A stretch of DNA of 32,822 bases, taken from Okamejei kenojei (taxonomy: Eukaryota). The stretch is taken from the NCBI GenBank assembly GCA_035221665.1, contig JAVHYY010000873.1:1-32822 (forward strand), read 5' to 3'. Positions 1,701 to 24,000 of this stretch are shown here, piece by piece (within the stretch, counting starts at the first letter, position 1; each line of letters opens with the position of its first letter). The translations under genes were made by a program, and so were the position numbers. The notes under the pieces were generated by a model. It was not told the DNA's origin and made no database searches. It saw nothing but the letters and a program-made list of their open reading frames with translations.

Positions 1701-3589
1701 TATGGGGGACGAGTATAACGGGAGCTGTCCTGTGCGGTATGGCTGCCCAGCCTGCAGCTGTCCTTTGTTTCTCTCTTTTTTTTTTTAATTTTTTAGTTAG
1801 TTGAGTTTTTTTTTTTTTCCGGAGTCCTAAGCCTTTTTTTTTTTGTGGGGGTGGGGGGGAAACTGCTTTCCTAGGGTCCCTACCTGGTCGGGAGGGGCAT
1901 CTTTTCTTTTCTCCGGGCTGGCAACCCGTCGACGCGTCCCTCGCGGCCTATCCAGCGGGGCCTGGACGGCGTTTCCCGGGGGGGCCCGCCCATAAACAAG
2001 ACGCTTCGGCGTGGGGCACAGTAACTGGAGCGCCGGTGACTGCGGCTGAACTCGCGGAGCTGGCGGGACATGGTTTGGCGGCGGCGGCTCTGAACTTCAA
2101 TCAACTTATAAAAAAACGTCGGGGGGCCTGGGATCTCTCGGCGAGATCGCCAGTGTGGAGCGCCAACATCCTTGCCTGGCGTCGGAAGCCGTGTTCTCCC
2201 AGCAAGGAAAGCGGCCGTTACAGGCACCCCGAGTCTCCAGACGCCCGGCGGAGAAGGGCCTAGAACATCGGCCCCCGTAGCAGCGACTGCGGAGGCCTCA
2301 GTAGGCCCGACTGTGGGTGAACTGGGGATGGGGTCTGGACTTTGTGCCTCCCCTCATAATGGGAGCCATTGTGGAGGGATGTTTTTTTTTATGGTTATTG
2401 TTAAATTCTTGAATGTTGTGTTACATGCTGCAGATTAATCCTTCCGATTCCTATTTTGTTTTCCATCCATCAGTAGCATTGCAAAGCGAGCCGTTCAGNN
2501 NNNNNNNNNNNNNNNNNNNNNNNNNNNNNNNNNNNNNNNNNNNNNNNNNNNNNNNNNNNNNNNNNNNNNNNNNNNNNNNNNNNNNNNNNNNNNNNNNNNN
2601 NNNNNNNNNNNNNNNNNNNNNNNNNNNNNNNNNNNNNNNNNNNNNNNNNNNNNNNNNNNNNNNNNNNNNNNNNNNNNNNNNNNNNNNNNNNNNNNNNNNN
2701 NNNNNNNNNNNNNNNNNNNNNNNNNNNNNNNNNNNNNNNNNNNNNNNNNNNNNNNNNNNNNNNNNNNNNNNNNNNNNNNNNNNNNNNNNNNNNNNNNNNN
2801 NNNNNNNNNNNNNNNNNNNNNNNNNNNNNNNNNNNNNNNNNNNNNNNNNNNNNNNNNNNNNNNNNNNNNNNNNNNNNNNNNGGGGGGGGGGCGCGCGACA
2901 CATATCTTGGGGCTGGGCGCACACAACCGCAAGGCATCGCCCGGGGGCCCCTGTGGACCGTAACTGCCTTGGTTTGGTGACCAGACTCCGAACTCCACAA
3001 CGGCAGCTTCGTCCGCCCCGAATCCCGAATTGGCCCGTTTGTGGGGACTTTCATCAGCCGTCGGGGGCTTCAACATTGGGAAACCTCGCAGCGGTTTGAT
3101 TTTAAGCCGCGGCGGGTGGCGAAAGGCCCCGCGAACGGGCCGATTCACCCCTCATAATCACCCCCTTAGAAAGCGTCTGATAAAGTCGGGATTGCAAAAC
3201 ATGTCCCACCTCTCAAAGCATGGGGGAGGAGGGGGGGGGGGCCCCCACCAGGATTATCCGCCCATGCATGTTGGCACGTCAGTGGTCTTCAAGAGGCTGG
3301 TCGCTGGATTTTATTTGCCGTGCAAATGGGGCGATTCGTTTTAAACTTCTGTCACATCTGCAGAGGCGGGGCTCGGCAAAGATGCGACGTCTTCACAAAG
3401 GTGGGTGTCTTCGCGCACCGCACTGACACCTGGGGAGCAAGGAAGAGACGGGATGATGCAGCCACAAGCACAAGGCAGCAGCAGTCCAGTATTAGCCGCA
3501 AAACCTCCGCGTTACATTCCCCAGAGTCCGCTTGGTGGTAGATGCCCGTCTGTAACGTGCGCTCTGGTTAATTATCTTTGGAACGTACT

Positions 3590-7166: not shown

Positions 7167-7253
7167 CTGAAGACATATCAGCAGCCGACACATCTGGAAG
7201 GGTAATGGGTCGACTCTGGTTCAGCCCAAATTGTGAGTCACGGTTCTGGTTCA
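7167..7253 (-). CDS. WB: Probable cytoplasmic exon 5 of the beta chain gene
   Basis: Unique island between repeats. Acceptor ttatctttctccag, donor CAG|GTAACC, 87 nt, phase 1-1, open frame VNQNRDSQFGLNQSRPITLPDVSAADMSS. Confidence 0.65.
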
Positions 7254-7289
7254 CTGGAGAAAGATAATCACATGTTTCCACTTTGGTCC

Positions 7290-11656: not shown

Positions 11657-11761
11657 CTTTCCATCTCATGACTCCTCCCAATACAGCAATCAGAATACCG
11701 ACTAATCCAGTCATTATTCCAACCACATATCCATAGACTGGTACGTTTTGATTCTGGGGAA
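11657..11761 (-). CDS. WB: MHC W-category-like beta chain, exon 4 (connecting peptide/transmembrane)
   Basis: Acceptor ttttttttctccag, donor G|GTAGGA, 105 nt, phase 1-1. Encodes VPQNQNVPVYGYVVGIMTGLVGILIAVLGGVMRWK: Gly-patterned TM helix followed by basic stop-transfer residues. Not in the ORF track. Confidence 0.88.
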
Positions 11762-13029: not shown

Positions 13030-14680
13030 ACAGCGGCAGCTGGTGGTGCTGCCGCCTCACAGAGTCGGTGATCCGGGTTCGACCCCGACTACGGGTACTG
13101 TCTGTGTGGAGTTTGCACTTTCTCCCCGCGGCAATGTGGGGATGTTACAAAACTTACCTTTAGTGGCGCTGCAGTTCTGTCACTGGCCGTGTGCGCGACT
13201 TTGCCGCCTTTGGGGGGGAGAGGGGGGGGGGGGGCGGGGTTAAAATGCGGTTTTCCCTTGCCATCCGGAATTATATTTTCTCGGGGGTGCGAGCTTTTGC
13301 TAAAGATTGGTTCCGACTGCCGGTAAGTGAAAAAAAAAATTTTTAATCGCCCAACTATTTCAGTAAAATAAAAATTAGCTCCTAATGCCATGAACGCGGA
13401 CGGGGACGGATTTTACGTAGGGGACAGGTAAACGAAAGCTGTTTATTTTTTCATACAAACTTGCTTGTTTAGATGACCTTAATCAACATTTCATGTTGCG
13501 AAACGGTGATTTATTTATTCCCCATACGAACCGGCAGTATTTTCCCTGCCGATATGGGGTTTAAATTCACCGCAGCCGCAACGTTCCAATCCATCGCGTT
13601 CCAGAAAATCCCACTCGCAAGCTGATTTAAATGGCCAAAATTTAATGTTGCGAAAAGGTGACTAAAAAAAAATATACGAACCGGCAGTATTTTCCCTGCC
13701 GATATGGGGGTTAAATTCACCGCAAACCGCAACGTTCCAATCCATCGCGTTCCACAAAATCCCACTCGCAAGTTGATTTAAATATCATTAATTTACGGGC
13801 ATTAAACACTAAATTTCTTCAATTTGGCCCATAAATAAATGACAATTAGATTTAAAAATCATGTTATATTGTGAATTCTTGTGTAAATGTTATTTGGACA
13901 CTTAGGCTTTTTAAAAAATGTTAATATTTTCTTAAGAAATGGATAGATGTTTAGATCTAGTAATTGAATTTTGTAATTAGCTACAATTGAGTAACTAACT
14001 AATTATATGCTTTAATTTCAGGTCATCCAAGTAAGATTGTTTCATATTTGTTTCAGAATGCTTCAATCTATAATAACTGAAAATTTCTTTCAGTTCTCTT
14101 AATTTTTTAAGAAAGTTATGGGCTTTTGACTGTCCTCGATCACAGCTTTTGAGTTAAATCAATGGAAAAGCAATAGGGAACAAGATGCTAATTTCCGAGT
14201 ATGAAAATGGCCATAACTTTTTTTAATACTGAAGATATGAAAGTGAATTGGGTGTCAAATTATATCTTTGTATGCTTTATCTGATGGGATAAATTGCAGA
14301 CTTGATTTTTAAAATCTCAAAATGTTGTAACATTGCTAGACAATGTGGGTTTGTCTCCAGATGCTCCGGTTTACTCCCACACTCCAAAGACGTGTCGGTT
14401 TGCCAGTTAATTAGCTTTTGCAAATTGTCTCTAGTGCGTAGGATAGTGCTGGTGTACGGGGCAATCGCCGGTCGGGAGGAAGCCGGAGCCCGAGACCCGG
14501 GATCGATCCCGACAGCGAGCGCTGTGTGTGTGGAGCCTGTATGTTCTCCCCGTGCCTGCGCGGGTTCCGGCTCCGGCCTCCTCTCGCATCCCAAAGAGGC
14601 GTGGGGCTTGTAGATTAATTGTCCCCTCTGCTAATTGTGCCCGGGTGTGTAGGTTGTGAAAGTGGGACAACATAGAACTA
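13030..14680 (+). mobile_element. tRNA-derived SINE split by a DNA transposon, plus an adjacent second SINE (about 14490-14680)
   Basis: Box B ccgggttcgacccc at about 13073; the SINE body resumes at 14341. Confidence 0.65.
13137..14338 (+). mobile_element. Non-autonomous DNA transposon-like element (short TIR, ATGTTACAA core) inserted in a SINE
   Basis: Ends ggggatgttacaaaac and atgttgtaacattgcta, with caatgt repeated at both junctions. Internal 150-bp duplication (13524 vs 13674). An inverted second copy lies at 24001-25528. Confidence 0.75.
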
Positions 14681-16482: not shown

Positions 16483-16767
16483 CCCAAACTGCAGTCAGGT
16501 TGTCCGGTATGCTACTGTGTGTGACTTGGCAGGAATAGGTGTCGCCTACTCTGCTGGCGTCAACGGTAAGCTGTAGCCGCATCTGGAACGTCCCGTCAAC
16601 GTTGGCCAGAACGTTGCTCCGCAGCACCTCTCGGTCGATGTCTTTGCCGTTCTGCAGCCAGGTGGTATTGATGTCCCGCGGGTAAAACCCATCCACTCTG
16701 CAGGTCAGGACCAAGGGATGCCCGTGCGCAGTTGGATGCCTGGAGGTTATCGTGATCGCAGGCTTCG
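16483..16767 (-). CDS. WB: MHC W-category-like beta chain, exon 3 (beta2 Ig C1-set domain, class I alpha3-like)
   Basis: Acceptor tttcctgtccacttcag, donor G|GTAAGG, 285 nt, phase 1-1. Canonical C1 motifs LTCRVDGFYPRDINTTW, DGTFQ and YSCQVTHSS. Confidence 0.95.
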
Positions 16768-19127: not shown

Positions 19128-19385
19128 CAGTCTCAGCTCGGATGGCTTCTTTAACCATGTGCGAGACCAACGGCATGCGACGGATGTATCGGGCAACGTT
19201 TTTGACAACTCTCACATTTTTGTTCAGTCCTTCGGCATATGGCTCCGCCAGGGGGTGTTTGGCTACAAACTTGTTCGAGGAGTATTCGAAGCGCATGAAC
19301 TCCTCGCCATCGAATGCAAACCGCAGGACCGTCAGGGAGAAATCATCACCAGTGCAAGAAAAGATCACTTGGCAAACGTGCATCC
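19128..19385 (-). CDS. WB: MHC W-category-like beta chain, exon 2 (beta1 membrane-distal domain, class I alpha2-like)
   Basis: Acceptor ttttctgctcaccag, donor G|GTAAGG, 258 nt, phase 1-1. Encodes GMHVCQVIFSC...RFAFDGEEFMRFEYSSNKFVAKHPLAEPYAEGLNKN...ARYIRR. Aligns by eye to class I alpha2 (GSHTVQRMYGC, QYAYDGKDY) and to class II beta1. Confidence 0.88.
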
Positions 19386-20359: not shown

Positions 20360-20815
20360 AAAGTCAAGTCAAGTCAACCTTGTCACATATACACATACAA
20401 GATGAGCAGTGAAATGAAAGTGGCAATGCCTGCGGACTGTGCAAAAACAACAGAACAAATTAGATCAGAGCCAGTATTTACATTTTCTTAAGGCGCAACA
20501 CAACGGTAAATTAGTCTCTGGTGAGATTGGAGTTTGCAGTCCTGACGGCCTGTGGGAAGAAACTCCGTCTCATCCTCTCTGTTTTCACAGCGTGACAGTG
20601 GAGGCGCTTGCCTGACTGTAGCAGCTGGAACAGTACGTTGCTGGGGTGGTAGGGGTCCCCATAATGTTGCTGGCTCTGGATCTGCACCTCCTGGTGTGTA
20701 GGTGCTGCGGGGGGGGGGGGGGGGGGGGGGATGTGGTTCCCATAGTGCGTTCGGCCGAACGCACTACTCTCCGCAGAGCCTTCCTGTCCTGGGCAGAGCA
20801 GTTCCAAAACCAGAT
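20360..20815 (-). mobile_element. Rex1/Babar-like LINE 3' fragment
   Basis: Inverted relative of 7290-7914 (QDRKALRRVVRSAERT; RRSFFPQAVR). Confidence 0.8.
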
Positions 20816-20817
20816 CA

Positions 20818-22615
20818 ACCTCACGCCTCTAACCCTCTCCCTCAAACCCGATCCTCCATCTAAATTCACACTTCTCCTCTCCCTCAGCCCCTTCAACCTC
20901 CTCATCTCTCCACCCTCCAAGCAAAACTCCATCGACTCATACTCTGCCCACGCGCCACCTCTCCCTCCAACCTCTCACTCTCCATCTCCCCCTCAACCCT
21001 CAAACCCTCTCTCCCTCAACCCTCCTCTCTCAACCCGCCCAACCCATCAACCCTTCCACTCCTCTCAACCTCTCTCCCTCACCCTCAACTCTCCACTCAA
21101 ACTCCTCTCCTCAACCTCCTCACCCTCCCTCAACCCTCCTCTCCCTCCCTCCCTCCCCTCCTCTCTCCTCAACCTCTCCTCCTCCCTCAACCCTCCTCTC
21201 CCTCAACCCTCCTCTCAACCCTCCTCTCCCTCCCTCAACCCTCTCTCCCTCACCTCCTCTCCCTCAACCCTCCTCTCCCTTTCAACCCTCCTCTCCCACC
21301 CTCCCCCTCTCCCTCAACCCTCCACTGGCCTCAACCCTCCTCTCCCCTCACCCTCCATCATCCCTCAACCCTCCTCTCCACCCTCCTCTCCCTCAACCCT
21401 CCCATCTCCCTCAACCCTCCTCTCCCTCAACCCTCCTCTCCCTCAACCCCACTCCTCAACCCTCCATCCCACGCTCCCCTCCTCTCCCTCCACCAATCTC
21501 CTCCCTCCCTCTCCCTCAACCCTCCTCTCCCTCCCACCCTCCACCCTCCCTCCCTCACCTCAACCCTCCTCTCCTCAACCCCATCCCCTCCTCTCCTCTC
21601 CCTCAAACCCTCCCTCTCCCTCAACCCTCTCCCTCTCCCTCAACCCTCTCTCTCCCTAACCCTCCTCTCCTCAACCCTCCTCTCCCTCAAACCCTCCTCT
21701 CCCTCAACCCTCCTCTCTCCCTCAACCCTCCTCTCCCTCAAACCCTCCTCTCCCTCAACCCTCCCCCCTCAACCCTCCTTCCCCTCCTCTCCCTCAACCC
21801 TCTCCCTTCCTCTCCCTCAACCTTCTCCTCTCCCCTCAACCCTCCCTCTCCCTCAAACCTCATCCCTCCACCCTCATCTCCCTCCACTCCACTCTCTTCA
21901 TCCCTTCACTCCCCTCTCCTCAACCCTCCTCCCTCAATCCTCCAATCTCTCATCCCTCGTCTCCCTAACCCTCATCCTCCTCCCTCCAACCCTCCTCCTC
22001 CCTCAAACCCTCTCCCCTCCACCCACTCAACCCCTCCTCTCCCTCAACCCCTCCTCTCCCTCCAGCCCCCAACCATCTCCCTCCAACCCTCCTCTCCCTC
22101 AACCCTCCATTCCCTCAACCCTCCTCTCCCTCTCAACCCTCCTCTCCCTCAACCCTCCGACCCTCAACGCCTCCCGTAAACCCCTCTCTCCCTCCCTCCC
22201 TCAACCCTCTCTCTCCTCCTCCAACCATCCTCTCCTCAACCCTCCCTCCTCAACCCTCCTCTCCCTCAACCCTCCCTCCCTCTCCCTCAAACCCTCTCCC
22301 CCTCTCCCTCCCTCAACCCTCCTCCATTCCCTCAACCCCATCTCTCCCTCCCTCAACCTCCTCTCCCTCACTTCCATTCCCTCAACCCTCCTCTCCCTCA
22401 ACCCTCCACTCTCCCTCAACAAAAAACCCTCCGCTCCCTCCAAACCCTCCTCTCTCCCTCCACCCTCCTCTCAACCCTTCCTCTCCCCTCCCCTCTTCTC
22501 CCTCCACCTCCTCTCCCTCCACCCTCCCTCTCCTCTCAAAAACCCTCCCCTTCTCAACCTCCCTGCTCCCTCAACCCTCCTCTCCCTCAACCCTCCTCTC
22601 CCTCAACCCTCCTCC
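20818..22615. repeat. Low-complexity minisatellite (CCCTCAACCCTCCTCT)n in intron 1
   Basis: Degenerate ~16-bp C/T-rich unit over about 1.8 kb. Confidence 0.9.
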
Positions 22616-22619
22616 TCAC

Positions 22620-22731
22620 CCAGAGCCGCCGAGTCGAGCATGAAGAAGAGGAAGAGCAGAGAGAGGAGGAGGCCGCCGCCGCCGCCATTCCCCCGCGGCC
22701 GTCGCCATCGCCGCCGTCCGTTGCCCCTCAT
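22620..22731 (-). CDS. WB: MHC W-category-like beta chain, exon 1 (signal peptide)
   Basis: ATG at 22731 gives MRGNGRRRWRRPRGNGGGGGLLLSLLFLFFMLDSAAL: basic N-region, hydrophobic core, small-residue end. Ends at a phase-1 donor G|GTGAGG in a CpG-rich context. Confidence 0.8.
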
Positions 22732-22751: not shown

Positions 22752-23582
22752 GGGTCGCTGATTGGCCGAGCGGGGGCTTTTCCACCCAGCAACAGCCCCC
22801 GGGTGGTCGCTGATTGCCGAACACAACAGCCCCCGGGTGGTCCTTGATTGGCCGAACGGGGTCTTTTCCACCCAGCAACAGCCCCCGGGTGGTCCTTGAT
22901 TGGCCGAACGGGGTCTTTTCCACCCAGCAACAGCCCCCGGGTGGTCCTTGATTGGCCGAACGAGGGTCTTTTCCACCCAGCAACAGCCCCCGGGTGGTCC
23001 TTGATTGGCCGAGAACGGGGGCTTTTTTCCCCCGTCCACCCAACAACAGCCCCCGGGTGGTCCTTGATTGGCCCGAACGAGGTCTTTTCACCCAGCAAAA
23101 CAGCCCCCGGGTAGGTCCTTGATTGGCCGAACGGGGGTTTTTTTTCACCTGGCAACAGCCCCGGGTGGTCGCTTGATTGGGTGGCCGAGCGAGGGTATTT
23201 TCCACCCAGCAACAGCCCCCGGGTGGTCCTTGATTGGCCGAACGAGGTCTTTTCCACCCAGCAACAGCCCCCGGGTGGTCCTTGATTGGCCGAACGGGGA
23301 CTTTTTCACCTGGCAACAGCCCCCGGGTGGTCCTTGATTGGCCGAACGGGGTCTTTTCCACCCAGCAACAGCCCCCGGGTGGTCCTTGATTGGCCGAACG
23401 AGGTCTTTTCCACCCAGCAACAGCCCCCGGGTGGTCCTTGATTGGCCGAGCGGGGGCTTTTTTTCCACCCAGCAACACCCCGGTGGTCTGATTGGCCCCG
23501 GGGGCTAGTCCTTGATTGGCCGAACGAGGGCTTTTCCACCCAGCAACAGCCCCCGGGTGGTCCTTGATTGGCTGAACGGGGG
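22752..23582. repeat. 52-bp minisatellite (about 16 units) with X1-like (CCCAGCAACAG) and Y/CCAAT-box (GATTGG) motifs; probable promoter region
   Basis: Unit ccccgggtggtccttgattggccgaacggggtcttttccacccagcaacagc recurs at 22831, 22883, 22935 and onward. It starts about 20 bp upstream of the leader ATG. Confidence 0.9.
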
Positions 23583-24000
23583 CTTCCCCCCCCCCCCCTG
23601 TGATCGAGGACAGTCAAAAACCCATAGCTTTCTTAAAAATTAAGAGAACTGAAAGAAATTTTCAGTTATTATAGATTGAAGCATTCTGAAACAAAAATGA
23701 AACAATTTTACTTCGGGACGCGCGCCTTTTCCGACCGTCTTTCCCGCCTTCTTCCCTCTCGCCGGCTTCGCTCAACGCCAGGCGCCGATGGCCGCCCCCC
23801 CCTCCTTCCTCACCTCACGCACGACAGAAAACAAAAAAATGCAAACATCCCCGCCCCGGTCCTGACATATTACTGAACCCGAGCACAAATGTGGGCGGTC
23901 GAAGCTGCAAGCAACGCCAATGCCTTTTGTTGTTTTTTTTTTTAAATTGCTTAAATTCTTCTTCCCTGGCAACATTCAAAATAATGCAAAGCAATAATTG

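Follow-up and report, generated by a model that had tools for sequence, protein, structure and literature searches.

A tandem array of X1-like and CCAAT boxes as a candidate promoter of a W-category MHC gene in the skate Okamejei kenojei

A head-to-head pair of W-category genes

The window, i.e. the whole stretch of 32,822 nucleotides of Okamejei kenojei DNA analysed here, is a complete unplaced 32.8-kb contig (C1003) of a 2.76-Gb assembly. It exhibits two MHC-family genes in head-to-head orientation and, next to the start codon of one of them, a tandem array of short units (22752..23582, plus strand). The individual features are the following.

3344..3439, minus strand: last cytoplasmic exon of WB, approximate
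7183..7254, minus strand: cytoplasmic exon of WB, approximate (E-value 0.001), alternative in the isoforms of relatives
11657..11761, minus strand: connecting-peptide/transmembrane exon of WB
16483..16767, minus strand: beta2 (Ig C1) exon of WB, with G61 and A57
19128..19385, minus strand: beta1 exon of WB, about 73-74% to P0003/P0004
22620..22731, minus strand: leader exon of WB, coding part, resembling the N-termini of P0002 and P0004
22760..22767, plus strand: the first Y/CCAAT box of the array and the nearest to WB, some 30 bp off the WB ATG
23305..23319, plus strand: best X1-like box, CCTGG variant (a second one at 23144), 13/15 identical to the X box of the skate's own class IIA gene
23598..23713, strand not given: piece of a 175-bp repeat of very high copy number, adjoining the last array unit
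29391..29426, plus strand: proximal promoter block of WA, GAAGTGAAAC and a GC box
29484..29592, plus strand: leader exon of WA (DS10-like), coding part
31395..31658, plus strand: alpha1 exon of WA, the remainder of the gene lying beyond the contig end

The original prediction spoke of a beta and an alpha gene and missed their category. Judged by their closest sequence matches and by-eye alignment to the rows of Dataset S2, without a tree, they are a head-to-head W-category MHC pair, WB (DS1-like) and WA (DS10-like), and not class II. The beta2 domain of WB exhibits 83-84% identity to Leucoraja and Amblyraja proteins labelled class II beta-like in the databases. It is 84% identical to Leucoraja P0001, whose beta2 domain shows by eye one difference against the "little skate WB DS1 like" row. 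In the by-eye alignment to the Dataset S2 rows, WB carries G61 (NVDGTFQ) instead of the tryptophan W61 that is invariant in class II. At position 57 it has an alanine where P0001-P0006 have a proline, either a real variant or a sequencing/assembly error. W-category and class I chains retain P57, a residue in contact with Y8 in the partner domain. Splice sites are intact for the leader, beta1, beta2 and transmembrane exons, and the WB of this locus is single-copy in the assembly.

The WA alpha1 exon (31395..31658) matches no Pfam family; it exhibits 78% identity to P0007 and is close to "little skate WA DS10 like". The alpha2 exon would lie past the contig end, and the near-identical WA copy on another contig (C1028) has W61 and the loss of W37. 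This second WA DS10-like copy (C1028:72400-82650), 94-99% identical over alpha1 and the next intron, is either a paralogue or the other haplotype. It shares the WA proximal promoter block of the window, and exhibits no array unit, and no WB within 49 kb upstream. The shared block contains, in the window, a GC box and the ISRE/EICE-like GAAGTGAAAC; in reverse complement, the latter also occurs in the MHC-region modules of contig C30 described below. No X-Y pair was found in the WA proximal block, just upstream of which two masked stretches could hide elements.

A second head-to-head W pair was observed on a further unplaced contig (C574:11780-32770), where a DS5-like WA, with its leader at 20664, is paired with a WB similar to Nds5. 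This pair has no array unit; the leader and beta1 exons of its WB were not found, so that its promoter is not pinned down. At the scan threshold, no X-Y pair was detected for either the C574 pair or the C1028 WA.

W pairs are arranged head-to-head in sharks, teleosts and the coelacanth, and W-category molecules have been proposed to be intermediates between class II and class I, their function being open (PMC8713811).

The window is rich in repeats, with 55 tandem-repeat rows in the TRF output, among them 1.6 kb of CT-rich repeat sequence in the first intron of WB. The promoter region is flanked by long low-complexity tracts, one CT-rich and one GA-rich, on opposite strands (20997-22615 and 27230-29180). 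An AT-rich element bounded by short terminal inverted repeats occurs in very many copies in the sequence runs; the window has two of them, inverted to each other (24007-25523 and 13140-14335). The right copy (24007-25523) contains four 175-bp tandem units, with about 100 bp of flank on both its sides.

A tandem array next to the WB start codon

The array starts 20 bp from the WB (beta) ATG at 22731 (minus strand), and 5.9 kb separate its end from the WA (alpha) ATG at 29484 (plus strand). Cut at the Y core, it comprises 17 Y cores and 16 units of 24-63 bp. Half of the units (8/16) are exactly 52 bp long, which is the mode, and two are truncated (24 and 34 bp). TRF run on the window reports a 52-bp period with 12.6 copies and 86% matches at 22824-23497, confirming the predicted 52-bp periodicity.

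Each unit reads, in order, a pyrimidine tract, an X1-like box, a 16-nt GC-rich spacer and a Y box (ATTGG). The X-to-Y direction points away from WB and toward WA; as originally described, the array abuts the beta ATG and is directed at the alpha gene. On the WB strand, each unit has its CCAAT box in forward orientation and, behind it, an X box that is inverted. The first Y/CCAAT box (22760..22767) lies likely inside the WB 5' UTR.

An X motif had been claimed for nearly every unit. This holds for the 9 of 16 units with an exact CCCAGCAACAG, a sequence occurring nine times in the whole window and always inside the array, and for two further units with the X core CCTGGCAACAG; it does not hold for three units in which X is degenerate and for the two truncated ones. 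The Y motif GATTGGCC is exact at 14 of the 17 Y cores, and GATTGG is present at 16 of them, with the Y box downstream of X. The claimed 16-nt gap between X core and GATTG stands for 13 of 15 X cores, the others having gaps of 17 and 11. Counted from the last letter of the X core, ATTGG follows at 19 nt.

Two elements of the classical module are not seen. TGACG/CGTCA, the mark of an X2 (CRE-like) box, is absent from the array, where the spacer is a C/G run. No S box was identified in the array, and a skate S consensus is not definable from three promoters; about 16 bp upstream of each X, where the S box would sit, lies the Y box of the preceding unit. Within the window, variation between units falls mostly in the Y-to-X linker. 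This linker could also be read as a kappaB site, off the consensus by a single mismatch or an additional T. The pyrimidine tract described 5' of X boxes (PMC2278383) accounts for the linker sequence, and the kappaB reading was therefore set aside.

A 157-bp array query gave DNA matches exclusively on C1003 (8/8). An exact 16-letter unit pattern has 12 matches in the genome, 11 of them in the array (control, 1). The unit is thus confined to this locus.

Comparison with MHC promoters of the same genome

Two canonical promoters serve as reference. A protein search located the class IIA leader at C30:1290298; the b2m leader lies at C30:8611978, with the b2m promoter module at C30:8611772. The X box is separated from ATTGG by 28 nt in class IIA and 29 nt in b2m. 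Both modules point to their ATG, at a distance of 151 bp (class IIA) and 164 bp (b2m). The b2m and MHC-region modules have an X2-like core (TGAC in b2m). Against these, the 19 nt of the array bear out the original estimate, made against HLA-DRA, of an X-to-Y distance shorter by about 9 bp, or about one helical turn. Since the class IIA and b2m promoters are canonical, the X1-X2-Y geometry is old.

A genome-wide scan with an X-Y pattern returned 15 matches (control, 3), namely class IIA, b2m, five modules on C30, two array units and six others. The five C30 modules (C30:1254832-1393297) surround the class IIA gene and are related, all with the 28-nt spacing and four of five with TGACGC. They are copies of one another, so that the canonical cases amount to three independent ones. 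Downstream of the X-Y elements these modules exhibit ISRE- and kappaB-like elements. A tblastn search of C30:1.22-1.42 Mb with alpha and W proteins turned up no class IIB gene. Broken retrovirus-like pol and env pieces are found just downstream of class IIA (C30:1335000-1340000).

The X-like box of the array resembles the X boxes of the skate's own class IIA gene and MHC region. With a matrix built from three own-genome X boxes only, one of which was itself found by an X-like pattern, 11 of 16 array units reach 11 bits or more. Of 20,000 dinucleotide shuffles, 1.5% for the common unit and 0.035% for the CCTGG unit equalled or exceeded the observed X score. When the hexamer GATTGG/CCAATC was required in addition, the frequencies were 0.055% and 0.005%, respectively. 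With the 13/15 match of the best variant to the class IIA X box, these figures uphold the predicted X1-like and Y-like content. On sequence grounds, the X-like element of the array is the species' own X box.

A looser X-Y pattern yielded 41 matches outside the array, at distances of 13-37. Seven are at 28 (six of these being one duplicated family), four at 17 and two at 19. The 19-nt distance is not enriched genome-wide, and the pair consequently receives no independent statistical support as a composite element. Another loose pattern (209 matches, mostly repeat or chance, 100 of them listed) was discarded. Similar pairs were noticed at GC-rich promoter-like sites. At C26:22241000, an X-like box with the 19-nt distance of the array is accompanied by GC boxes and three ATTGG boxes. 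In a related GC-rich promoter family the X-like box lies 28 nt (C15:59178673, C143:542935) or 17 nt (C37:18794520, 18798117) from ATTGG; the 11-bp difference between the C15 and C37 copies is a natural one-turn change between related copies.

The array in other organisms

Eight of 24 listed sequence runs were checked, from organisms A (n=3), B (n=2), C, D and F (n=1 each). Array units are covered in all eight runs and thus in all five organisms, where pieces were counted only if at least 80% alike, a threshold biased toward conservation. Runs X5 (A) and X12 (B) bridge the junction between leader and array, with 31 letters or more to either side. Pieces from C, D and F reach from the leader into the first unit for 25-29 letters, Y box included. 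In the same three organisms, joints running from the unit end back to the start of the first unit reveal tandem copies. A single unit had been expected in relatives; this expectation failed.

The best pieces of the relatives differ from the array units by 0-4 letters in about 50. C>T at 22782, in the pyrimidine tract of the CCTGG-type unit, predominates in B, C and D. One piece from C has four spacer substitutions with the spacer length unchanged. Read by hand from the variant tables, C has X-to-ATTGG distances of 18, in two forms, and of 21, in a minor one; the value is 18 for D, 19 for F and 20 for B, the last reflecting one added cytosine, with three B indel rows not displayed. X-less unit forms are present in C and D, while a Y box is found in every listed form; among these forms, CCAAT is the most stable part of the unit.

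The surroundings are less constant. As judged from the loose ends of the pieces, neither the first WB intron nor the DNA beyond the last unit is the same in the relatives as in the window. Behind the array, the relatives continue into other GC-rich DNA, against the 175-bp repeat fragment in the window. A homology search of this downstream flank against the WA promoter gave no significant result. Since the unit occurs only at this locus, is present in 8/8 runs and is tandem in relatives, the array is neither an artefact nor a dispersed satellite, two of the possibilities that the original prediction had named as refuting it.

Interpretation

We propose, at a probability of roughly one half, that the array is a multimerised RFX and NF-Y promoter of WB, derived from an MHC module and distinct from the canonical enhanceosome of CIITA/NLRC5. 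In the skate lineage, a unit combining an X1-like box with CCAAT would have been multiplied in tandem directly upstream of WB. The array is likely the main WB promoter, with NF-Y predicted on each CCAAT box and an RFX factor on each X box, and would probably lack the CREB site and the geometry that CIITA or NLRC5 require in mammals. Transcription of WB likely starts inside the array, as the nearest CCAAT lies about 30 bp from the ATG (151 bp for class IIA and 164 bp for b2m, measured from the module). The unit may go back to an X1-X2-Y module that lost roughly a helical turn, a descent that alignment could not show. WB expression might be steady and of an open-chromatin type, with inducibility, if any, supplied by the ISRE-like element on the WA side.

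The persistence of the array in five organisms while both flanks differ would favour this promoter reading, as would the short X-CCAAT pairs at GC-rich non-MHC sites (19 nt on C26, 17 nt on C37). Against it, the X-Y spacing varies in the relatives (18, 19, 20, 21), the C574 pair and the C1028 WA have neither array nor X-Y pair, and the window is rich in neutral-looking minisatellites.

The original prediction of an MHC enhanceosome module is not supported, given the missing X2 box, the off-range spacing, the inversion relative to WB and the lack of an S box among the elements found. Bidirectional action and tuning by copy number, put forward in the same prediction, would be possible properties of the array. 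In class II genes, order, orientation and spacing of the module are fixed (PMC2278383, PMC7866136). In human cells, the XY length of CIITA-regulated genes is 46-50 bp, with one of 63, and 47-49 in MHC-II, while sites bound by CIITA and not regulated vary in spacing (PMC4381081). Being 9-10 bp shorter, the array unit falls below the range of the regulated genes. For NLRC5, an S box of its own about 16 bp from X and an X-Y distance of 20-22 bp, in the metric of that paper, are reported (PMC4374748).

A doubtful but possible alternative is a compact enhanceosome without X2, in which RFX and NF-Y, one turn closer and on the same face, recruit CIITA or NLRC5. The copies would replace the CREB site, and the array would co-induce WB and act as an enhancer for WA. 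The shortening of 9-10 bp is indeed close to one turn, and by arithmetic the 52-bp period keeps the distances from X to later Y boxes (19, 71, 123) near the canonical phase (28-29), although periods within 1 bp of whole turns are not uncommon by chance. At CIITA-bound sites the spacer can vary from 0 to 42 bp, and the CREB site is the least conserved, yet no module so short occurs among the CIITA-regulated genes described (PMC4381081). CIITA and NLRC5 are both present in sharks (PMC8455134). For NLRC5, however, the S-box position is occupied by the previous Y box, and the array spacing has to be set against the 20-22 bp required in that paper's metric (PMC4374748). One SXY module can lie between divergent genes (PMC4374748), but WA is 5.9 kb off across repeats and has its own proximal block, common to the array-less C1028 copy. 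Canonical modules are moreover retained elsewhere in the skate genome.

We consider it unlikely that the array is a largely neutral minisatellite, in which one or two units work, the rest arose by slippage or unequal exchange and copy number is irrelevant. The 55 tandem-repeat rows of the window, the tolerance of truncated and X-less units and the drift of spacer length between species are what such an origin would leave. It accounts poorly for an array that persists with 0-4 differences in about 50 letters next to a diverging intron and downstream flank, or for variation within the window being concentrated in the Y-to-X linker. Finally, an assembly artefact is highly improbable: the window is one whole small, error-rich unplaced contig (32.8 kb) with evident indel noise, and the count of 16 rests on this contig with no piece from the runs spanning the array, but diagnostic variants recur among the units, all eight runs cover them, the leader junction is bridged in X5 and X12, and tandem joints occur in three other organisms.

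If the array is a multimerised RFX/NF-Y promoter of WB, it may offer a first handle on how the little-understood W-category genes are switched on. No description of their regulation was found in the literature searched on W-category MHC, with subscription journals largely outside the scope, and the word "promoter" is absent from the main text of Okamura et al. 2021 (PMC8713811). The array is a concrete, short, cross-species element, for which the skate's own class IIA and b2m modules provide built-in controls. The X1-X2-Y geometry, from which a W gene deviates by roughly one turn of the helix, is already fixed in a cartilaginous fish. A response to CIITA or NLRC5 as co-activator would tell whether the W intermediate is regulated in a class II-like or a class I-like manner.

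Comparison with known systems

The gene pair conforms to the W-category WA/WB pairs of Okamura et al. 2021 (PMC8713811), being a head-to-head alpha/beta pair with exons matching the little skate rows. The array itself has no such direct counterpart in the literature searched, which covered W-category MHC, shark X1/Y boxes, cartilaginous-fish SXY, skate CIITA/NLRC5 and MHC-promoter VNTRs, with subscription journals largely outside the scope. PMC7046753 contained no passage on RFX.

With the class II S-X1-X2-Y module, bound by RFX, CREB, NF-Y and CIITA (PMC4381081, PMC2278383, PMC7866136), the array shares an X1-like box that has a pyrimidine tract on its 5' side and ATTGG after it, upstream of an MHC-family gene. 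It differs in having no X2 and no identified S box, an X-Y distance 9-10 bp shorter, an inverted orientation to the adjacent gene and about 16 tandem copies instead of one. The NLRC5-type SXY module of class I and B2M (PMC4374748) contains the same X and Y ingredients and can likewise sit between divergent genes. The b2m module of the skate, with its 29-nt spacing, X2-like TGAC and direction toward its own gene, has three properties that are all missing from the array.

Human RFX5 and NF-Y co-bind widely at CCAAT arrays outside the MHC, with a peak at a distance of 29 bp and other distances as well (PMC4889920). The array resembles such multi-CCAAT promoters in its evenly spaced CCAAT and RFX sites, its GC-richness and the absence of the strict MHC distance. 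In contrast, the double-CCAAT distances given there are 19, 24-28, 35-37 and 43 bp, not 52, and the promoters described are not tandem-repeat arrays (PMC4889920).

The nearest precedent found is the short motif duplication in class II promoters of cetaceans (PMC6155461), which is also a lineage-restricted duplication within an MHC promoter. The segments reported there are 11-22 bp long, occur in 2-3 copies and lie outside the X-Y core, whereas in the skate array it is the X-Y pair itself that is repeated, about 16 times.
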